NCBI GenBank assembly: GCA_964586465.1
Contig: CAZPHL010000002.1
Coordinates: forward strand, 1-58,704
Source: an uncultured Sangeribacter sp.
Lineage (GTDB): Bacteria; Bacteroidota; Bacteroidia; Bacteroidales; Muribaculaceae
DNA length: 58,704 nt
Direction of reading: 5' to 3'
The notes beneath the pieces are model-generated. The model saw only the letters and a list, made by a program, of their open reading frames with translations. It made no database searches and had not been told where the DNA came from. Below, piece after piece: positions 3,475-49,396 of this stretch. Position numbers and translations under genes: made by a program. Within the stretch, counting starts at the first letter, position 1. Each line of letters begins with the position of its first letter.

Positions 3475-6237
3475 TCAAAGCACTATCTTCACTTTATCCT
3501 TGCCGTTTGTGACAATATAAACACCTGCTGCGGCTTCTATTCTTCCGGGGCCTTTGAGAGAGTCCACTTTACGGCCGTCCACGCCATAGATATCCACGGG
3601 AACTTCGGTATAGTCAACCACAATCGCATTCTCCTCCCCATGCACTCTTAACGAGCCGGCATCACCGTCACTCCACACAGACTCAACTGCTGCCAGATCA
3701 TTTGATCCGATTACTACATAACAATTGGCCGGAACTGTGACTGTACCACCTGCTGCACTGAAAGTCGGTGTCGTGTCATACGATTTGGAAAGAATCGTAT
3801 AGGAAGAATCATCACTCTTACCAAAACTTACATTCACGGTAATTTCTTTATCCGCATTAGGATTAATCACCGTTATAAGTTCTTTTACACCTGCTTTAGA
3901 CACCATCGTGCGCCCGTTAGCCCAGTTGGCCTGAGCACAATTGTTTTCAAACGATGCACTTTCGGCAAACAGATCAGGATTAGCTGAACGTATCGCCATC
4001 AACTCCGAATAATTATCATATAATCCCTTCCTGTCAGGATTGTCGAGCAAGCTCCAGCAGACAGTCTTGGGATCGGTGTTATTGCCTCCGTCATTATTCT
4101 TTGTATTCTGCGCATTACCGAGTTCAGAGAACTGCCATATCATGTGTGCTCCGGGAGCGAGAATCATCTGTGCGGCTGCCGAACCGAGACGATGCATCGA
4201 ATTAGGCACGTTTCCTTTTACTCCCGCCACGCCCCACTGCTCCTGCTTATAGGCCAGACGCTGTTCGTCATGACTTTCGAGGTAAGAAACGGTGGAACCC
4301 CAAGTACGCTGGTCCTTGGGAGCATACATACGGTTAAGGTTGCTGTCATCCGCATATCCCATGGCAAACTGACAACCCGCTTCGTTGATATTTGCCCAGT
4401 TAAGCTGACCTGTCTCCGCCATGTCGTTCTCCTCCTGAGCGCCGGCAAGATTCTCATTTATGAAATATCCGTTTGGATTCACGCCTTCCACTACTTTCTG
4501 CAATTCTCTCATTCGGTCGATACGCGATTGATTAAAGGCATTTGTAGCCGCATCTCCGGAATTGGCGTAAGAATCATTATTACCCAGACCTTTCACAAGA
4601 TCAAAACGGAATCCGTCAAATTTATATTCGGTCATCCAATATTCAAGCACATCCTTCCACTGCTCCTGCACCATTGGAAAACCCTGATTCCAATCGTTGA
4701 GCACACTGTAAGCATGAGGAGCCTGCATATTATAGAAAGGATTATCACCGGGCATATACATCTGATACCAGGGATGCAGACCGTCGCTCTGATTGAACAC
4801 CATATCAAGAATAACAGCAATCCCGTTCTGATGACAGATGTCGATAAACTCCTTATAGTCAGCCGGACTACCGTAAGCTTTGTCAGGAGCAAAATAGAAG
4901 TTAGGATTATAGCCCCAAGATATATTTCCGTTAAACTCCATAATAGGAAGAAGTTCAACGGCATTTACACCGAGAGTCTTGAGATAAGGAATCTTCTCGA
5001 TGGCCATGCGTACGGTGCCGTTACCGTCCGCTTTTCCTTCAGTACCTGTGAAATCACGGAAAAGCAACTCATATATCATGAGCTCAGAAGGTGCAACACC
5101 TTTGAAATCCTTCACCTGCCAAGTGTAATCGTTGATATTACCTTGATATACGGCAAGAGGCACACCATCTATCTTATCGAAAGGATACTGTGGCAGATCG
5201 GGATATACGTCGGTGGAGATATACTTGTCGTTCCAGGGGTCGAGCACAAGGCGTGCATAGGGATCGCCTACCTTCTGCACACCGTCTACAAGGAAATAAT
5301 AACCATACTGCTGCGTGTTGTCAAGGCCATCAAGAGTAATCCAGAAATAACGCAGACCGTCGACATCCTGATAATTCATTACGTACTTATTGTCATAGAC
5401 ATAGTCATTCCAAGCCCCGACAATCATGACACTCTCCTTTCCGGGTGCTCCGAGACAGAATGTGACACTACCGTCATTGTTTTTTACCGGACCCATTTTT
5501 GGAGTTCCCCCGGGATAATTCTCAGCTTTCGAGTCCTCGGCAAAGGTATAACTGCGAACTGTAGTTACTGTGGCATCCCCCGCCGTGGCCACCGCCTTCA
5601 CCACATACTCGCCGGGACCCGGGAAAGTATAGTCTACCGTAAGAAGAGTCGAGTTCTTCACAGACCCGATTTCTTTGTCATTGACACTAAGGCTTATATC
5701 GGCAGACTTGGTAGCGCCCACCTTGAACGTCACATCAGCAGTAGAGGGTGTCACTAATGATCCGCTTAGACCCGACTCTAAAGCCACCTGAAGACCGGAG
5801 TCGAGCACATCGAGAAATATATCGGCATCACCCTCACCCTTTCCCTCTTTCGATTTATCACCCGTACGGAAGACGAAAGCTAGACGTGTGACATTCACCG
5901 CCGGATCTGTTATACCGTAATATTCACGGATATCACCTATATAAAGCAGCCAGAGGTTCTCACTCACATAGCTAAGCTGATATTTCTCAGAATTGTCGCC
6001 CCATTCGGGAGCGTTTACCCAATTATTACCGTCGCTCAGGCATGCACCCGTATGAGCATATACCTTCGCGGTAGCGGGCAAACCCATAAGGCCCTTATTA
6101 CCTTGATCGGCATGGAAAAATATTTTCACATCCTTGGAGTCCTCCTGAAGCGGTGACGGTTCAGACGTGACTTGGGCATACACGCCTGTAATCGTCGCCA
6201 GCAGAAAGAGCAACGTCACAATATAAGTCTTCATCAT
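3475..6237 (-). CDS. Secreted GH13 alpha-amylase/pullulanase-family enzyme with CBM48-like module and T9SS-type C-terminal domain
   Basis: Signal peptide; GH13 regions WGYNP, DMVFN, DGFRFD, INEN, ESHDE; C-terminal IYGVDGRKV...AGVYIV...KVKIVL typical of T9SS cargo. Confidence 0.88.
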   Translation of the reverse strand: MMKTYIVTLLFLLATITGVYAQVTSEPSPLQEDSKDVKIFFHADQGNKGLMGLPATAKVYAHTGACLSDGNNWVNAPEWGDNSEKYQLSYVSENLWLLYIGDIREYYGITDPAVNVTRLAFVFRTGDKSKEGKGEGDADIFLDVLDSGLQVALESGLSGSLVTPSTADVTFKVGATKSADISLSVNDKEIGSVKNSTLLTVDYTFPGPGEYVVKAVATAGDATVTTVRSYTFAEDSKAENYPGGTPKMGPVKNNDGSVTFCLGAPGKESVMIVGAWNDYVYDNKYVMNYQDVDGLRYFWITLDGLDNTQQYGYYFLVDGVQKVGDPYARLVLDPWNDKYISTDVYPDLPQYPFDKIDGVPLAVYQGNINDYTWQVKDFKGVAPSELMIYELLFRDFTGTEGKADGNGTVRMAIEKIPYLKTLGVNAVELLPIMEFNGNISWGYNPNFYFAPDKAYGSPADYKEFIDICHQNGIAVILDMVFNQSDGLHPWYQMYMPGDNPFYNMQAPHAYSVLNDWNQGFPMVQEQWKDVLEYWMTEYKFDGFRFDLVKGLGNNDSYANSGDAATNAFNQSRIDRMRELQKVVEGVNPNGYFINENLAGAQEENDMAETGQLNWANINEAGCQFAMGYADDSNLNRMYAPKDQRTWGSTVSYLESHDEQRLAYKQEQWGVAGVKGNVPNSMHRLGSAAAQMILAPGAHMIWQFSELGNAQNTKNNDGGNNTDPKTVCWSLLDNPDRKGLYDNYSELMAIRSANPDLFAESASFENNCAQANWANGRTMVSKAGVKELITVINPNADKEITVNVSFGKSDDSSYTILSKSYDTTPTFSAAGGTVTVPANCYVVIGSNDLAAVESVWSDGDAGSLRVHGEENAIVVDYTEVPVDIYGVDGRKVDSLKGPGRIEAAAGVYIVTNGKDKVKIVL

Positions 6238-6280
6238 GGTTTGAAAGTATTTGGTTAAACAAAAAAGCAGCTTTTATACT

Positions 6281-6721
6281 TCAGTCCTCATCAGGCACGT
6301 ATGTTTCCTCACGCATGTGGGAATATTCCGTCCAATCGACATCTTCCTCCGCCTCAATTACGATAGGGATAGTAGGCAATTCCTCGAGAGCTCTATTGAA
6401 CACTACGGAAAAAATCTTGAGATTCTTCGTATAGAACACCCAGTCGCGTCGCCCGTCACCGGTATAGATGCCGGTCATGACAGCCACACGGTCTTTCTTG
6501 AAAGCCTCCATAAGGGCATCGGTAGCTTCCTCCATAATTTTGGCGTCCTCGTCTTCCGGCATGCCGTCAGGCAAGGCGTTATATTGCCAGGTCACATCTA
6601 TACGATATTTATACTTGCCGCTATCGCGGAAATCATCAATCTTGTCACGCCCTGTCACAATCACCGTACGCCCCGACTCACTTTCGGCCGGATAACTCCA
6701 CCATTTATCTGTATATTTCAT
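6281..6721 (-). CDS. DUF695-family protein
   Basis: WWSYP...VIVTGR, GMP, TGIYTGDGRRDWVFY motifs recalled for this Bacteroidetes family. Confidence 0.7.
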   Translation of the reverse strand: MKYTDKWWSYPAESESGRTVIVTGRDKIDDFRDSGKYKYRIDVTWQYNALPDGMPEDEDAKIMEEATDALMEAFKKDRVAVMTGIYTGDGRRDWVFYTKNLKIFSVVFNRALEELPTIPIVIEAEEDVDWTEYSHMREETYVPDED

Positions 6722-6768
6722 CTCATCCGCGCTTTAATGTCGTTTTCCTTTCTATGGAAAGTCAACTG

Positions 6769-7911
6769 TCAGTGTATGGTCACAAGAGTAGCGCCGAACC
6801 CATACTCCCGGAAAGAGGCATCCTGAAGTTCAGCTTTGGGATATTCTTTCTTAAGGAGGTCAAGCACAGCTTTACGGAGCACGCCCTCACCCTTACCATG
6901 AATAAACACAATCTTCTGGCCGATTCTCTGCTGATTGTCACGCATGTGCTTGCGCACGGCGGCAAGTTGCATTTCCAGCATATCCTTTGGTTCCATTCCG
7001 GTCAGCGTGTCGGTCAACTCCCCGATATGAAGATCCACTTCTATCAAAGGGAGAACTTTATGAGGATTATCGGCCGGGTTATATCGGTTACGTTTCTCAC
7101 CCTTGTCGACACGATACTTTTTCGACAGCTCGGAGGCCATATCCTTTTCAGTTTTCTTCTCCGTCATGGCCTCACGCACCTCGGCCACATTCACTTCAAG
7201 AGGTTTCGAGGCCACCCCGTCTGTGACCAGAGGCACTTCAAGAACGGGGTTATCAAAATAAAGACCCGGACGGAAACAATGGTATTTATGAAACTTAGTG
7301 AGATCAAGTTTCCGGGCTACACTAACCGGGGGTTGAAGAGTGAAAATTTTTTCTTTCTTATATGCTATACATTGGAAAGCGATTTTCTCGTATTTAGGCA
7401 GATCCTCATGTGTAAGCGTCACAAGATCTATGAGTTCATTGGGCACGACTGTCCCGTTATAGACCATGGTCCAGCCTCTTTCCTCCGCGCTGCGTCGTAA
7501 AAGAGAGAAATCCAGATAATAGTTTGAATCATTAACCAGCACCGCGGTAAACCTGGTTTTATCGAGATGCTTCACATCACCCGGTTCGAAAGCCAGCACA
7601 ATATTCGGTTTCTCCCCGTGAGGAGTTTCCTCCACAGGAAGTTCGGGTTGAGATTCCGGGACAGCCTGTGTTTTAGCCTCAGCGGGTTGAGGCGATTTCC
7701 GGCCCTCGTCAAATGCTTTCTGGTCAAACATAACCTTAGGGGCATTGGCAGCTTTCTCATGCCCTGCCGGCATGACCACCACAACCTCTTTCAACATAAC
7801 GGGGGTTTCGAAACCCTCATCATCCACGTATGCTATCTGTCCTTCGATCCTTACAATCTTTCCGCCTCCCACAGAGTTGAGAAAGCGCACAGTATCACCA
7901 ATCTTAGCCAT
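6769..7911 (-). CDS. DUF2027 / Smr-domain protein
   Basis: N-terminal KIGDTVRFLNSVGGG; C-terminal Smr domain EVDLHI...IVFIHGKGEGVLR...YGFGAT. Confidence 0.85.
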   Translation of the reverse strand: MAKIGDTVRFLNSVGGGKIVRIEGQIAYVDDEGFETPVMLKEVVVVMPAGHEKAANAPKVMFDQKAFDEGRKSPQPAEAKTQAVPESQPELPVEETPHGEKPNIVLAFEPGDVKHLDKTRFTAVLVNDSNYYLDFSLLRRSAEERGWTMVYNGTVVPNELIDLVTLTHEDLPKYEKIAFQCIAYKKEKIFTLQPPVSVARKLDLTKFHKYHCFRPGLYFDNPVLEVPLVTDGVASKPLEVNVAEVREAMTEKKTEKDMASELSKKYRVDKGEKRNRYNPADNPHKVLPLIEVDLHIGELTDTLTGMEPKDMLEMQLAAVRKHMRDNQQRIGQKIVFIHGKGEGVLRKAVLDLLKKEYPKAELQDASFREYGFGATLVTIH

Positions 7912-43183: not shown

Positions 43184-43753
43184 ATGTCAGAAGAAATGCG
43201 TGAAGTGGCAGGCCCCGGTAAATTTGTGGCCTTCTCATATAAACTCTATGATGATGCCGATGGTAAACTTCTTTTTGAAGCTACTCCTGAGCAACCCGAT
43301 GTAATGGTTTATGGTGTAAGCCATGAGATCGTGCCCGGCCTCGTTGAAGTGATCAAAGGTCTTGGCAAAGGTGATAAATTTGAAATCACCCTGCCTCCTG
43401 TAGCGGCTTTCGGCGATCGTAGCGCCGACTATGAACTCGTGCTTGACAAAGAGATTTTCATGCGCGACGGCAAACTTGCTGAAGAAGTCAAGGTAGGCGC
43501 CTTCCTTCCTATGATGACGGCAGAAGGTTACCGTGTTCAAGGTCTTGTAACTGAAGTAGGTGACAAGATCAAAATGGACTTCAATCATCCCTACGCCGGT
43601 AAGACAGTGCGTTATGAGGGCGTAGTGGAAGAAGTGCGTGACGCTACTCCGGAAGAGCTCAAGCCACAGGGCGGTTGTTGCGGCGGCTGCGGCGGTGGAA
43701 GCTGCAGCGACGGTGATTGTGGAGACTGTGGTGACGGATGCGGTTGCCACTGA
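43184..43753 (+). CDS. slyD: FKBP-type peptidyl-prolyl isomerase, SlyD-like, with Cys/Gly-rich tail
   Basis: AFG, MDFNHPYAGKTV, VRDATPEEL, tail GGCCGGCGGGSCSDGDCGDCGDGCGCH. Confidence 0.85.
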   Translation: MSEEMREVAGPGKFVAFSYKLYDDADGKLLFEATPEQPDVMVYGVSHEIVPGLVEVIKGLGKGDKFEITLPPVAAFGDRSADYELVLDKEIFMRDGKLAEEVKVGAFLPMMTAEGYRVQGLVTEVGDKIKMDFNHPYAGKTVRYEGVVEEVRDATPEELKPQGGCCGGCGGGSCSDGDCGDCGDGCGCH

Positions 43754-43773
43754 AAATAAAGCAGTAAGATAAT

Positions 43774-43821
43774 AAAACCGACAGATTATGCTGATTGATA
43801 GGCATAGTCTGTCGGTTTTTT
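43774..43821. terminator. Bidirectional terminator between slyD and the radical SAM gene
   Basis: AAAACCGACAGATTATGCT / GGCATAGTCTGTCGGTTTT inverted repeat. Confidence 0.85.
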
Positions 43822-43837
43822 CTGCTGTATCCTTATA

Positions 43838-44902
43838 TTATTGTTTTTTCAAATGACAGTGCATCAGTTTTCCTTCCGAATCTCTGAGATGCATACCGTT
43901 ACCCTCGCAGTATCTCCAGAAAGAACAGTCGGCACATATCCCGGTCTTCATCCATTTCCGGTTGCGGTAAACTTCGAATCTGTTCTGCCACACATCCCAG
44001 AAGTCATCCTGATATATATTTCCTTGCCGATAGTCAGCCCGGATACTCGCACAGGCTCCGATACCTCCGTCAAGCAATATGGAGGCGACAGTCACACCGG
44101 CTGTGCAATCAAAGAAATGGTCTCTGATTTTCCCTTCGTATGCACCCATAAAACCTTCACAACAGAATGAAGCACGTATGCAGCCTTCATTACGGGTATC
44201 TACGATAAAACGCATCAATTCCTCTGTTTCTTCCTTCGTAAGGTCAAATTCCGGATACTGAGCAGCCCGTCCTGAGGGGAAAATTGTAAATAATCTCCAT
44301 TTTTTAACCCCGGCCTCTATCAACAACTTCTTCAGTTGATTTAATTCGGGAAGCGAACGACGGTTGACGCACGTTACCACATCAAAATTAACATCCGGCA
44401 CCGCGGCCACCATTTTTATAGCGTTATACGCCTTTTGAAATGACTGACTGTGTCCTCGCATCCAATTATGATTTCCCTCGAGCCCATCAAGACTTATGGC
44501 CATATTATGGATACCTGCCCTACGGAGACTGTCGAGCCTCTCCTTCGTCAGCAACAGGCCGTTAGTGACAATACCCCAGGGCAGCTCACGGTTATAAAGC
44601 TCCCGGCCTACATACTCCAAGTCTTTTCTCACTAACGGCTCACCCCCTGTTATAACTATATTCAGCACATGAGGATTAACGTGAGGTAGAATGGAATCCA
44701 CCACTTTAAGGAAATCCTCGGCAGGCATGTCGGGAAGCACTGACGAACTCTTACAGTCGCTTCCACAATGTCGGCAAGCGAGATTGCACCGCCATGTACA
44801 TTCCCAGAAAAGTTGCCGGAGAGGATGTTCTCTCCGGCGATCGTTTTTGAGCTTGCGGTTGAGTTCAAGGGCAAGTCGCTGTCTTAAAGATATTTTGTCC
44901 AT
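43838..44902 (-). CDS. Radical SAM/SPASM enzyme of the rSAM/lipoprotein system (TIGR04133-like, splicease-like)
   Basis: FWECTWRCNLACRHCGSDC (CxxxCxxC), TGGEP, SLDG; SPASM CTAG...GAC...CADC..WRYCEG...C; coupled by a TGATG overlap to the upstream lipoprotein. Confidence 0.88.
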   Translation of the reverse strand: MDKISLRQRLALELNRKLKNDRRREHPLRQLFWECTWRCNLACRHCGSDCKSSSVLPDMPAEDFLKVVDSILPHVNPHVLNIVITGGEPLVRKDLEYVGRELYNRELPWGIVTNGLLLTKERLDSLRRAGIHNMAISLDGLEGNHNWMRGHSQSFQKAYNAIKMVAAVPDVNFDVVTCVNRRSLPELNQLKKLLIEAGVKKWRLFTIFPSGRAAQYPEFDLTKEETEELMRFIVDTRNEGCIRASFCCEGFMGAYEGKIRDHFFDCTAGVTVASILLDGGIGACASIRADYRQGNIYQDDFWDVWQNRFEVYRNRKWMKTGICADCSFWRYCEGNGMHLRDSEGKLMHCHLKKQ

Positions 44903-45363
44903 CAGTCTTTATTATCTGCCGGTTTTAACACGAAATCAACCGTAGCCTCGGCTGTCCCTACGTACCAAAAGTTGTCATGGTGAGTCTTATCCTTTACGTA
45001 ATTCAACTCCACTACTGTGGAGTCGGCGCTCAGCTCAGGATCATCAGGAATACATACGATTTTCAGAGTGGTGATGACAACCTTTCCATCCTCTTCTACA
45101 ATATAGGCTCCGGCGGCGTCTGTTTCAGTGGCAGCTATCGGATAGAGACTTGAATCGTAGTCGGGCCACGCTGCTATTATACTTGCTCCGCTCACTGCCT
45201 TACCCGCCTCATCAGTGACAGTCCCCTTGATTTCCCAATCCCCTGTAGGCGTACCATACATCGTCAAGAGTTCATCAGGATGATCGGAAGAACAACCGAA
45301 TCCTAAAATACCCATACATAAGGCACACAAACGCGAGATGGCAGCAGTTATGTTAATTCTCAT
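44902..45363 (-). CDS. Radical SAM-associated lipoprotein (TIGR04134-like) with MYGTP motif
   Basis: Lipobox LGFGC, then MYGTP and an IKGTVTD...TDAAGAY beta-sandwich. ATG at 45363 preferred over TTG at 45390. Confidence 0.82.
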   Translation of the reverse strand: MRINITAAISRLCALCMGILGFGCSSDHPDELLTMYGTPTGDWEIKGTVTDEAGKAVSGASIIAAWPDYDSSLYPIAATETDAAGAYIVEEDGKVVITTLKIVCIPDDPELSADSTVVELNYVKDKTHHDNFWYVGTAEATVDFVLKPADNKD

Positions 45364-45375
45364 AAACAGATTATT

Positions 45376-45421
45376 AATTATTATCCTCAACCTTGATCAA
45401 TTATTATCCTCAGCCTTGACC
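45376..45421. repeat. 23-bp tandem duplication
   Basis: AATTATTATCCTCAACCTTGATC (45376-45398) and AATTATTATCCTCAGCCTTGACC (45399-45421), 21 of 23 identical. Confidence 0.85.
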
Positions 45422-45672
45422 ATCAGCGAATCGGGCTCTAAAGAAGGATCGTCAGCTGCCATACTTTTAATTTCATAAGTACTGCTGACAGTGCCATACA
45501 TTAACACTATTCGGTCATCATCGGGATTATCCGGGTTATCAGGCTCATCGGGCTCAGTGGAACAGCCGTAGCCCAATAATGACATCATAGCAACACATAA
45601 GTATGAAAGAAGCGATGACAACGATAACTTCCGTTTGGTTCCGTTTCCGGTCTTCATATAAATTTTGCCCAT
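45397..45672 (-). CDS. Short lipoprotein/lipopeptide precursor with MYGT motif
   Basis: Lipobox LGYGC, PDE-PDN-PDN-PDD spacer, LMYGTV...YEIK paralleling TMYGTP...WEIK of the neighbouring gene. Confidence 0.75.
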   Translation of the reverse strand: MGKIYMKTGNGTKRKLSLSSLLSYLCVAMMSLLGYGCSTEPDEPDNPDNPDDDRIVLMYGTVSSTYEIKSMAADDPSLEPDSLMVKAEDNN

Positions 45673-45741
45673 ACTACTTGGTATATTAATTTTAAGCTTA
45701 ACTGATTAATCTGATGCAAATATAATCAATTCTTATCTTAT

Positions 45742-45770
45742 AGATATTCAATATCTGAAAATACTGCATG
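45742..45770 (-). promoter_or_regulatory. Putative ECF promoter of the lipoprotein-lipoprotein-rSAM operon
   Basis: CATGCAGTATTT-N12-TATCT, same motif and spacing as upstream of the sigma fusion. A TATATTTG primary-sigma element is also present at 45724-45717. Confidence 0.75.
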
Positions 45771-45819
45771 AGGTCATAAAAAAACTTACATCCCTGAACC
45801 AACAATGATACCATTTGTC

Positions 45820-47499
45820 TTAGAAGTTGAAGCGGAAACCTATGGGAAGAGAGAAACCCCATTGATTGTCACTCCATGCATTCGGCACTGTGTAATCATG
45901 TTTGAAATGATACTGCAACGTCGGCTCCAAAAAGATATCAATCCTATTGCTGAGTTTAATCCCTATACCATATCCTACAAACATTGACCAGACAACCGGT
46001 GAATTAAATCTGCCACCTTCTAAATAAGAAGCGTATGGCGAATCGCTCACAACGGCTTTTGAATATAAAGGAATGTCAATCGAGCCTCCTACACAGGCAT
46101 ACAGTTTTACCCTTTGGTAAGAGAAGGATCGGATATTTATTTTAACCGGTATACCGAGATAATGCCAATAACAGTCACTCTTGGAAGAATAGGTCTCAAA
46201 AGTGGAATGTAAATAAGTGTAAGTCAATCCGGATTCCACACTAAAAGTCTTATTCAACGTTTTCGATACAGAAGCAGAAAACGACACAGGTAAAGAATTA
46301 GTATGGGGTACAGAAGCATAATTCGAATACACGCTGTTTCGTGAGCGAGCGGAAGGTATTGATGATTTCTTATCTTTATCTATCCCATCAGTATCCGGAT
46401 TTGTAGGCTTATTAGGTTTATCACACGGGCCGTTAAAATCGACAGAAGGAGGAGTTTCAGGATTAGCACCATACATTAAATCATCCTTTGAGCCATTCCC
46501 TAACTTAAGGAAACCCGGATCAGCACTCAATCTTAATGACCATAAACTTGAAGAGACTTTAACTTCATTAATTTCCGGCATTGACTCCACATTATCGCTA
46601 TAGGCATAAAGAGGCGGCTCGGTCACACCAACTTCTACTTGATCTGACTCTTTAACCTCTTTAAGACTGTTTTCATGGTTGTCAGGAGTTGAGACAGAAG
46701 TCTCTGAAACTTCCGTCACATTATCAGGATCGGTATTTCCTGAACCTTTAGATACTTTACCCGTACCAGAAGATTCTTTATCTGTATTACCCACTTCACT
46801 CTTTTTAATACCTTCTGCTATAACAATCGGTGCAGCTTGCGTCAGTGAGATGCTCTTTCGTTCAACGGTCAGAAGTTCCGCAGAAGGATTATTGCTTTGG
46901 ATATTACGCCATATCACCAAACCTCCAATAATTCCTAACAGTAGTATACTCCAGACTCCGGTCTGCTTTTTATATTCAGTTATGAGTTTCCTCATCATCA
47001 GTTTGGCATGAAATAACTGTGAAGAGGATGAATTAGGAGCTATACCCAGTAGTTTGGCTATCTCCTTATGCGATTTATTCTCTAAGACAGCAAGACGGAA
47101 AACCTTCTGATAGCCTGCCGGAAGACGTGTGATCAAAGTTTCAAGTGTCTCCAGATCAATTATATCCTCAATCTGTGGGGTGTCCTCGACATCGGGAATA
47201 TCATGAAGTATCTGGGTGACATCCTGAGCCTGCAGGAAGTGCAACGACAGATTCTTCATGATGGAGGCAAGCCAATAGTCAACTTTTCCGGCATCGCGTA
47301 AAGAAGACAGTCGTGTGAAGGCTACGATAAACCCGTCATGCAGAATGTCTTCCGCATCTTTTTGATCATTTACATAACGGCGTATCACACTGAGCATACG
47401 GGGTGCAAAACGGAGATAAAAAAGATTTAAGGCTTCCTTATCTCCCTTTCTGCACTCCTCAACCAAAGTGTGATTATCTATTTCTAACTGTGAGTTCAC
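45820..47499 (-). CDS. ECF sigma factor fused to a TM helix, long linker and C-terminal outer-membrane beta-barrel
   Basis: aa 1-178 sigma (DAEDILHDGFI; LPAGYQKVFRL...SHKEIAKLLGIAPNSSSSQL); TM aa 181-197; S/T/E/K-rich linker; barrel strands VESGLTYTYL, HYLGIPVKI, IFLEPTLQYHF; terminal IGFRFNF. One uninterrupted ORF with a GTG start. Confidence 0.85.
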   Translation of the reverse strand: MNSQLEIDNHTLVEECRKGDKEALNLFYLRFAPRMLSVIRRYVNDQKDAEDILHDGFIVAFTRLSSLRDAGKVDYWLASIMKNLSLHFLQAQDVTQILHDIPDVEDTPQIEDIIDLETLETLITRLPAGYQKVFRLAVLENKSHKEIAKLLGIAPNSSSSQLFHAKLMMRKLITEYKKQTGVWSILLLGIIGGLVIWRNIQSNNPSAELLTVERKSISLTQAAPIVIAEGIKKSEVGNTDKESSGTGKVSKGSGNTDPDNVTEVSETSVSTPDNHENSLKEVKESDQVEVGVTEPPLYAYSDNVESMPEINEVKVSSSLWSLRLSADPGFLKLGNGSKDDLMYGANPETPPSVDFNGPCDKPNKPTNPDTDGIDKDKKSSIPSARSRNSVYSNYASVPHTNSLPVSFSASVSKTLNKTFSVESGLTYTYLHSTFETYSSKSDCYWHYLGIPVKINIRSFSYQRVKLYACVGGSIDIPLYSKAVVSDSPYASYLEGGRFNSPVVWSMFVGYGIGIKLSNRIDIFLEPTLQYHFKHDYTVPNAWSDNQWGFSLPIGFRFNF

Positions 47500-47506
47500 T
47501 ATTTAA

Positions 47507-47535
47507 AGATAGGCCTCAACCCCAAATACTGCATG
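47507..47535 (-). promoter_or_regulatory. Putative autoregulatory ECF promoter, probably giving a leaderless mRNA
   Basis: CATGCAGTATTT-N12-TATCT ending 7 nt before the GTG start codon. Confidence 0.75.
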
Positions 47536-47577
47536 GCCTGTTGAAAAAAAACATCATGACAGTATAAAAATCGAGAT

Positions 47578-47629
47578 AAAAAATGAAGTTGCAATATGCA
47601 AGGACATTCCCATAACATAATGCAACTCC
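47578..47629 (-). terminator. Probable terminator after mltD
   Basis: Minus strand GGAGTTGCA...TGCAACTTC followed by ATTTTTT. Confidence 0.55.
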
Positions 47630-47656
47630 AATGTTCTGCAAAAAAAGCTCTGAATT

Positions 47657-49396
47657 TTATCTTTTTCTCTTCTTCTTCTTGGATGAGCTCTTTTTGCTAC
47701 TACTCTTCTTAGCAGAAGATCCTGTGGATGAAGAGGCCTTAGCTTTTTTGGCGGGTATTTTCAAAGTCGCTCCTGCACGGAGAGCATCCGAGGTCATGCC
47801 GTTGGCCGCCTTCAGTTCTGCGATAGAAACTCCATATTTCTTTGAAATAGATGAGAGACTCTCACCGCTCTTGATCTTATGCGAACTTGGAGCGGCAGCT
47901 TTCGCAGTTTGTGTCTTACCTGTCTGAGAGGTCTTAGTGGTTTTCTTTGAAGAGGCAGGAGCTGACTGAGTTTGCTGACGGGTGGGAGCAGACTGAGCCA
48001 CCTCGGCATCTCCCGGTTGAGTGGTAGTGATGCGTAGCTGCTGACCCACTCTCACTGCATTACGACGGAGATTATTACTTTTCTTGATTTCAGCCGCTGT
48101 CACCCCATATTTCTCGGCAATCGAATAGAGACTTTCACCGGATGCCACCTTATGCACTATCACGGAAGGTTTCCCTTGGGCTGCTGCCAAAGCGACATCA
48201 GCCTCACCGGTATCTGTAGGCCACACCTCTGTGCCGTCAATGGCATGTAGAGCATCACTCGGCATCTCGCCCGGCTCAACGGCATCCCGCTTGGCATATT
48301 TGTCTGACTCGAAATTAAGAATATCATTTTCGCTCAGCAAATAAGCATGAATCTGCTGAGAAGGGAGGATCAAGGTGTAGGTGACTGCCTCATTGCCGGG
48401 AATAAGATCGGCACGAAACTGAGGATTCAGGATTCTTAATTCATCCACAGGAATATCCAGTACCTTTGAAATCTGGTTGAAATGCACGCGGTTTGATACC
48501 TGAAGTGTATCCATCACCAATGGTTTCACGGGCAAGACAGGAGAGATATTATGCTGCGGATAGTATTCCATCACATAGTTGGCAGCTATGAACATAGGTA
48601 CATATCCTCGTGTCTCGGCGGGAAGATAATTATAAATCGACCAGAAATCATGATCCTTTGCCTCTCCACCGGCCCTGCGTATGGCTTTATTTATTACACC
48701 GGGGCCACAGTTATAAGCAGCTATAGCCAATGACCAGTCGCCGTACATGGCATAAAGATCTTTAAGGTAGGAAGCTGCTCTTTCAGAAGCCACGTATGGA
48801 TCACGACGCTCGTCCACAAGAGAATTGACCTCCAGACCCAAACCCTTGGCTGTGCCGAGCATAAACTGCCAGAGACCGGCAGCACCGTGTTTTGACACTG
48901 CATTGGGATCAAGCCCGGACTCAACTACCGGAAGATACTTCAGTTCGAGAGGAAGTCCTTTTTCCTCAAGCGCCTGTTCAAATATAGGCATATAATAGAG
49001 GCTCAAGCCAAGAATAGCGGCGACCTGCTCCCTACCCCGTTTGGTATAGCGATCGATGTAGCTGCGTACAATCTGATTGTAGGGCATCTCTATTACAGTA
49101 GGCAATGCTGAAAGACGCTTTATCATCTCGGCATCACTAACATCTGCATCAGGCTCCGTCTCAAACCGATTGTCGGTGGCGGTATAATTCTTGATAAACC
49201 AGCTTTCACGCAATTTATGTGCATCAGCTTCAAAACTCTCAGGATACACGATGGCCTGATCTGTGATACTTGTCTTCAAGTCAAGCACATTCGGCTTCTT
49301 ATCTTTAGTGGTCTTGGCAAATCCTGCGAGAGAAGCTGCTGCAAGGAGAGCCAATAATAAATGTCTTTTCATATTATGGGGGAGAACTATAAGCAT
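47657..49396 (-). CDS. mltD: Lytic murein transglycosylase D-like protein with two LysM domains
   Basis: SLT motifs LPVVES, AAGLWQFM, AIAAYNCG, ETRGYVP; LysM HKVASGESLYSIA and HKIKSGESLSSIS; Lys/Ser tail. Start may be 49372. Confidence 0.88.
   Translation of the reverse strand: MLIVLPHNMKRHLLLALLAAASLAGFAKTTKDKKPNVLDLKTSITDQAIVYPESFEADAHKLRESWFIKNYTATDNRFETEPDADVSDAEMIKRLSALPTVIEMPYNQIVRSYIDRYTKRGREQVAAILGLSLYYMPIFEQALEEKGLPLELKYLPVVESGLDPNAVSKHGAAGLWQFMLGTAKGLGLEVNSLVDERRDPYVASERAASYLKDLYAMYGDWSLAIAAYNCGPGVINKAIRRAGGEAKDHDFWSIYNYLPAETRGYVPMFIAANYVMEYYPQHNISPVLPVKPLVMDTLQVSNRVHFNQISKVLDIPVDELRILNPQFRADLIPGNEAVTYTLILPSQQIHAYLLSENDILNFESDKYAKRDAVEPGEMPSDALHAIDGTEVWPTDTGEADVALAAAQGKPSVIVHKVASGESLYSIAEKYGVTAAEIKKSNNLRRNAVRVGQQLRITTTQPGDAEVAQSAPTRQQTQSAPASSKKTTKTSQTGKTQTAKAAAPSSHKIKSGESLSSISKKYGVSIAELKAANGMTSDALRAGATLKIPAKKAKASSSTGSSAKKSSSKKSSSKKKKRKR

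Follow-up and report, generated by a model that had tools for sequence, protein, structure and literature searches.

The gene described here, on the minus strand of a 58,704-nucleotide stretch of DNA from an uncultured Sangeribacter sp. (the window), is a Muribaculaceae-type member of the Dma3 kind, a real and conserved fusion of an ECF21 sigma factor, a membrane helix, a linker and a predicted outer membrane barrel in one chain. Contrary to what the original prediction had implied, the architecture is not new: Pardue et al. (2024 PNAS, PMC10927553), and likewise their preprint, have described Dma3 of Bacteroides thetaiotaomicron (BT_2778), found in 10 of 29 genomes, as a Dma protein with the sigma factor fused N-terminally, and ECF21s12 and s29 are listed as fused to barrel anti-sigma factors in the supplement of Casas-Pastor et al. 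(2021, PMC7826278). On balance, and with some confidence, we favour that this Dma3-family chain is likely anchored in the inner and the outer membrane and likely inactive as long as the sigma factor is not released by proteolysis; the freed sigma factor would then drive expression of its own gene and of an adjacent cassette from a predicted promoter (Table 1).

Anatomy of the fused protein

Table 1. Features of the fused gene, its predicted promoters and the adjacent cassette (positions in the window)
Feature	Position	Strand	Basis
Dma3-type gene: ECF21 sigma, TM helix, linker and OM barrel, 559 aa	45820..47499	-	ORF, Pfam, AlphaFold model, orthology, trees
Sigma region 2 (aa 7-100)	47200..47481	-	Pfam PF04542; fold match to sigmaE region 2
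Sigma region 4 (aa 110-176), recognition helix APNSSSSQL	46972..47172	-	Pfam PF08281
Single hydrophobic helix (aa 180-197)	46909..46962	-	Hydropathy and AlphaFold model
Disordered linker (aa 198-318), predicted periplasmic	46546..46908	-	pLDDT under 50
Barrel strand 1 (aa 319-329)	46513..46545	-	AlphaFold model, conservation, fold match
Long disordered loop 1 (aa 330-398), predicted extracellular	46306..46512	-	Model; topology inferred from OmpA-like fold
Barrel strands 2-8 (aa 399-559), terminal Phe	45823..46305	-	Pfam (below cut-off), model, fold match
Predicted autoregulatory ECF promoter (-35 TGCAGT, -10 TATCT)	47506..47535	-	28.4 bits, best genome site
Another such predicted promoter, preceding the lipoprotein/radical SAM cassette	45741..45770	-	25.3 bits, second-best genome site
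TIGR04134-like lipoprotein, 91 aa, truncated tandem copy with lipobox and MYG motif	45397..45672	-	Weak, E 0.087
TIGR04134 radical-SAM-associated lipoprotein, 162 aa	44902..45390	-	Above cut-off
TIGR04133 radical SAM/SPASM enzyme, 354 aa	43838..44902	-	564 bits vs cut-off 425

The gene is a single frame of 559 codons from a GTG start codon to the terminal GFRFNF, free of internal stops as first read. Sigma regions 2 and 4, recognized at the outset from the sequence alone, both pass the Pfam cut-offs (Sigma70_r2 at aa 28-93, Sigma70_r4_2 at aa 117-167), and in the AlphaFold model, which was built on 109 aligned homologs and is confident over the sigma domains, region 2 matches region 2 of sigmaE (Z 14.4, rmsd 1.6, 91 residues aligned). 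Among 323 distinct fused proteins, which together with 56 split Dma proteins underlie the anatomy counts given here, sigma region 4 is the most conserved part and its recognition helix is almost invariant. The transmembrane helix, initially placed at aa 181-197, coincides with a hydropathy peak at aa 180-197, where the most hydrophobic 17-residue window begins at aa 180-181; the model draws one helix over aa 155-202, with the last helix of sigma region 4 running without a spacer into the membrane segment. The linker of about 120 residues is likewise borne out as a segment that is disordered in the model, with low confidence over aa 207-315.

The claim of a barrel ending in a terminal Phe is supported by prediction. 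The model predicts an eight-stranded OmpA-like barrel, with the eight main strands between aa 320 and 558, which resembles OprF, NspA and OmpA (residues 316-559; Z about 16, rmsd 2-3 Å, 133-160 residues aligned), and the chain does end in GFRFNF; the Pfam match to OMP_b-brl_2 at aa 402-521 lies under the cut-off (E 4e-4). As a refinement of the original prediction, a disordered loop of around 70 residues (aa 330-398) intervenes in the model between strand 1 (aa 320-328) and strands 2-8. The C-terminal residue is aromatic in 264 of the 323 fused proteins.

The absence of a cytoplasmic anti-sigma domain, noted from the window protein at first, extends to the whole set. The distance from G152 to the start of the helix is 20-33 residues in all 323 fused proteins, whereas 55 of the 56 split Dma proteins carry an N-terminal tail of 46-68 residues, so that the fused proteins have no room for such a domain; the cytoplasmic, sigma-sequestering N-tail of the Dma1/Dma2 type is thus also lacking in the window protein. 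The linker counts at least 95 residues in 322 of 323 fused proteins and is not conserved in sequence, a floor near 95 which, by the estimated span, would fit a need to cross the periplasm. The positive-inside bias of the fused proteins is weak (1.3 versus 1.19 K/R).

Conservation of the fusion and relation to Dma3

Full-length homologs, proposed as a check on the fusion, were found in quantity and are not always split. A homolog search gave 545 matches among 7988 candidates, and 115 of the 120 matches listed cover at least 94% of the query; full-length relatives number in the hundreds, and the identical full-length protein is on record in NCBI and Logan assemblies. Single-frame fusions occupy 44 of 80 genome loci, the remainder being mostly two-gene sigma/barrel pairs. 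The closest named relatives are from Muribaculaceae; in the window's family, at least 21 of 150 genomes proved to carry a fusion, a count drawn from 30 excised loci. The window's genus has strong matches in 31 of 100 genomes, and a Bacteroides query gives them in 27 of 250 Bacteroides genomes. That an assembly error or a frameshift joined two genes is practically inconceivable and is already refuted by these family data, namely the near-complete coverage of the query by the listed homologs, the 44 single-frame loci and the missing anti-sigma tail, which loss of a stop codon alone would leave in place.

A few copies are split inside the linker, with sigma factor and helix apart from the barrel (L034:4992-6683; L156 in genome G240; L164 in genome G303; L243:2248-3900), and could reflect either faulty assembly or natural alleles that are constitutive in the manner of truncated IutY. 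A seemingly second fused clade in Bacteroides, with 'open frames' of 600-660 aa, was discarded, since those cut out and translated are in-frame split Das/Dma pairs. Over positions 45500-47000 of the window the G+C content is 39-42% on the fused gene versus 45-50% in the flanks, a dip which, with the patchy distribution, hints at a mobile cassette. At L012 and L026 (around 5001-6773), a fused gene of a neighbouring subclade lies between FKBP-type and lytic transglycosylase genes, the same site as window positions 43184-49396, in the orientation opposite to the window's and with no cargo.

The assignment to Dma3 is founded on orthology and on trees. In genome G394, the best match of the window protein is the sole fused protein (E 1.6e-44), ahead of two split sigma factors (4.8e-31 and 1.8e-27), and the reverse search from this fused protein returns the window gene. 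The G394 fused protein is identical to AAO77884.1 of B. thetaiotaomicron and its gene is followed by a methyltransferase gene, matching the published description of BT_2779, and the published Dma1 peptide was found at its published position within one of the G394 split pairs. From architecture, neighbouring gene and Dma1 peptide position, we infer that AAO77884.1 is BT_2778; WP_011108473.1 is absent among the four accessions listed when AAO77884.1 was matched. Identity between window protein and Dma3 amounts to 39% over sigma factor and helix and 29% over the barrel. In the sigma tree, a branch with support 100 sets 86 fused proteins and one broken copy (L118) apart from the 56 split pairs, and the barrel tree requires the same two label changes as the sigma tree. 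With a distant ECF outgroup, the root falls among the fused proteins, a placement flagged for long branches, and fused monophyly is not rejected by the AU test (p 0.56), so that a single origin of the fusion is allowed, not shown.

Compared with the closest known systems, the window protein shares with Dma3 the four-part architecture, the reciprocal best hit and the side of the tree, and in both cases a motif described below precedes the gene and the next gene. They differ in cargo, a methyltransferase for Dma3 versus TIGR04134 lipoproteins and a TIGR04133 enzyme for the window's Muribaculaceae-type subclade; a bt_2779-like adjacent methyltransferase gene is thus missing from the window, but as neighbours vary across the fused clade, this synteny does not define the family. 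ECF21s12 and s29 are, by their text description, likewise ECF21 sigma factors fused to a barrel-bearing anti-sigma factor, and the radical SAM gene noted at position +1 of ECF21s12 resembles the window (PMC7826278); the described ECF21s12 context, a radical SAM gene and then an oxidoreductase gene, matches Prevotella-type loci, whose enzyme is not TIGR04133. The proposed kinship to two-gene pairs of the EcfO/Reo type is supported: Dma1/Das1, Dma2/Das2 and Reo/EcfO possess a homologous sigma factor and barrel, with helix, linker, eight strands and a related promoter motif, but unlike the window gene are encoded by two genes, with a cytoplasmic sigma-binding tail of 46-68 residues and another -10 box. 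In both Dma papers the role of Dma3 is stated as unknown (PMC10927553; 2026 J Bacteriol, PMC13088901).

The predicted promoter and its cargo genes

An unbiased word count returned TGCAGT[A/C]TT-N13-[C/T]ATC on either side of fused genes, upstream and downstream alike. Among the regions that also served as its training set, the derived matrix detects the motif in 60 of the 69 non-redundant upstream ones and in 48 of the 67 downstream ones, against none of 345 and none of 335 shuffled controls respectively (0/680 in total). All 17 held-out loci, counted after removal of three duplicates of training loci of which one has no site, carry the upstream site, and 44 fused loci hold 58 sites on the strand of the gene and none on the opposite strand. 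With a matrix built without the window sites, the two predicted promoters of the window are the best sites in its 2.4 Mb genome (G000, 69% complete), in which no site outside the fused-gene locus exceeds 17.1 bits. Shuffled genomes yield one match each above 19 bits compared with two in the real genome, so it is the position of the sites and not their count that carries the genome scan. With just 6 nt between the end of the upstream promoter and the start codon, the message is predicted to be near-leaderless.

The published ECF21 group motif, GCAACC/CGTCT (PMC7826278), has a similar spacing but differs in its letters from the GCAGT[A/C]/[C/T]ATCT of the fused loci; nothing relevant to the latter was found in the available parts of the literature (PMC12596196 among them), though figure logos, further ECF subgroup tables and the PMC13088901 supplements may hold it. 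The sigma factor column best tied to the seventh -35 base is residue 156, which is His in 55 of 56 proteins with a C-site and another residue in 16 of 17 with an A-site, an association that comprises only three independent pairs when phylogeny is taken into account (p 0.5). The window combines Asn at this position with TGCAGTA, Dma3 of B. thetaiotaomicron His with TGCAGTC.

As a control, the split sigma factors have a sister motif, TGCAGTATT-N13-CATTTA, in 30 of 39 regions. Its four exact matches in G394 (none for the reversed pattern) precede das1, a DUF4840 gene, a lipoprotein-like gene without a Pfam match and a spot without a long frame. The split matrix scores 26.5 at the das1-adjacent nigD gene of G394, a weak 11.9 at the second and finds no site at the third. 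In a dma1 mutant, the strongest reported induction is that of a DUF4840 gene, two nigD genes and das1 (PMC10927553), so that the sister motif precedes the gene types most induced there and this class of motif behaves like a real ECF21 promoter. Predicted Das1 promoters lie at positions 185566, 1603709 and 6194865 of G394 contig C1 and at the nigD loci L192 and L193, and a Das2-type variant, TGCAGCATT...CGTCTA, precedes das2.

The -35 box of the window, and of its subclade, is the Das1-type box, and the split matrix scores 15.0 bits at the dma3 site of G394 and 13.4 bits at the second site of the window. Cross-reading is therefore possible and could explain the induction of dma3 in dma1 mutants; bt_2778-2779 are upregulated in dma1 and in dma2 mutants (PMC13088901). 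These same observations would suit a motif that is read mainly in trans by a free sigma factor of the Das1/Das2 type, in which case the Dma1 system would act on the locus and the fused sigma factor would have other or no targets. We regard this as unlikely, as the -10 box differs (ATC[T/A] versus ATTT), the fused recognition helix is nearly invariant, residue 156 covaries with the -35 base and a Das1 gene was not found in the incomplete genome G000.

Behind the second predicted promoter of the window lies a cassette of two lipoprotein genes and one radical SAM gene, on which nothing relevant was found in the available parts of the literature. The shorter lipoprotein has D/N/P repeats and an invariant MYG motif, which may, speculatively, be the substrate of the radical SAM enzyme; locus L352 has only a short copy. 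Among 20 new genome loci, the lipoprotein gene is present in 12 and the radical SAM gene in 10. Near the fusions of these new loci, a site lies within 260 bases of 18 of 21 TIGR04134 genes (duplicates included) and is absent at three; the 18 include five genes on the opposite strand (four distinct) and one 4 kb away. The motif hence tracks the TIGR04134 lipoprotein gene through relocation or inversion. A general link between TIGR04133 and the motif is ruled out, as it is absent from the 29 TIGR04133 loci taken from other parts of the order.

Other genes behind or beside the motif code for serpin lipoproteins, a CotH kinase, a methyltransferase, a glycosyltransferase and a different radical SAM enzyme. 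The serpin lipoproteins, which occur in some relatives (L355:2605-3867, L369:2677-3957, L370:2474-3745, L098:3234-4508), would place a protease inhibitor under a sigma factor that is likely protease-activated. Directly downstream of the fused gene, other subclades have a CotH-kinase protein or an unassigned radical SAM enzyme with a Gfo/Idh/MocA oxidoreductase (L017:5062-6471; L027, L028, L032, L035, L037). A wider reading, for which we see an even chance, is that Dma3 proteins are one-chain switches from the outside to a portable promoter, with a surface cargo that differs in each lineage (radical SAM/lipoprotein, serpin lipoprotein, CotH kinase, methyltransferase, glycosyl-/acyltransferase) and with His156 setting the -35 base that insulates them from Das1.

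Proposed mode of activation

In the favoured mechanism, the chain would be anchored in both membranes, a topology transferred from Dma1, and the tethering itself would be the off state of the sigma factor. By analogy with IutY and Dma1, a periplasmic cut would be followed by an RseP-type cut within the helix, and the freed sigma factor, which judging by position and covariation would read the motif, would boost its own gene and switch on the lipoprotein/radical SAM cassette from the predicted TGCAGTATT-N13-TATCT promoter. The cassette would probably modify or protect the surface; the signal, at which we can only guess, is probably outer membrane stress or a ligand that meets the barrel loops at the surface.

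Spanning of both membranes has, according to PMC10927553, been shown only for the unfused Dma1, which is processed proteolytically and whose barrel reaches vesicles, and a topology or processing experiment on Dma3 was not found in the available parts of the literature. IutY of Pseudomonas putida, as described in PMC5411451, also joins sigma factor, helix and an extracytoplasmic part in one chain and is activated by Prc and RseP cleavage, by which it is a likely working model for the window protein; it differs in that it has no built-in barrel, its TonB receptor being a separate protein, and in that its periplasmic anti-sigma domain is folded, and no homology is claimed. An M50/RseP protease was not found in the 69% complete G000, and is present in 20 of 20 relatives.

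A sigma factor that is active while tethered presents an alternative of low probability. ToxR and CadC are membrane-bound transcription activators, and similarly the chain might span both membranes and recruit RNA polymerase at the inner membrane without cleavage, under control of conformation or abundance. A conserved cleavage motif is found in neither helix nor linker of the 323 fused proteins, which is in line with this alternative, as are the missing anti-sigma tail and the lack of an RseP match in the incomplete G000. Against it speak the entry of the last sigma-4 helix into the membrane helix without a spacer in the model, the proteolysis of Dma1 (PMC10927553) and the observation that IutY variants which are still anchored, with periplasmic residues, need RseP (PMC5411451).

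Somewhat less probable again is a constitutive cut of the barrel during export, such that sigma-helix and barrel never constitute a lasting bridge between the membranes. Barrel fragments of Dma1 are abundant and full-length Dma1 is gone in stationary phase (PMC10927553), and the few copies split inside the linker (L034, and those in G240 and G303) would agree with such a cut. Motifs that could mediate it are few, however, signal-peptidase-like in 9 and lipobox in 19 of the 323 fused proteins, the linker hardly falls below a length estimated to be sufficient to cross the periplasm and full-length Dma1 is present in membranes (PMC10927553).

For dma3, whose deletion has been reported to cause no vesicle phenotype (PMC10927553), the predicted promoter and its regulon of two to three genes suggest a reason for this silence, an uninduced sigma factor with a tiny regulon. 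They would also offer a direct readout for the activation of a sigma factor anchored through two membranes, and the same readout would serve the question of how Sec and BAM build such a chain. If true, the portable-promoter reading would be the first to give Dma3 a regulon and to assign a regulator to the orphan TIGR04133/TIGR04134 pair, and through the motif this uncharacterised radical SAM/lipoprotein pair would be tied to envelope signalling in a family of gut bacteria.
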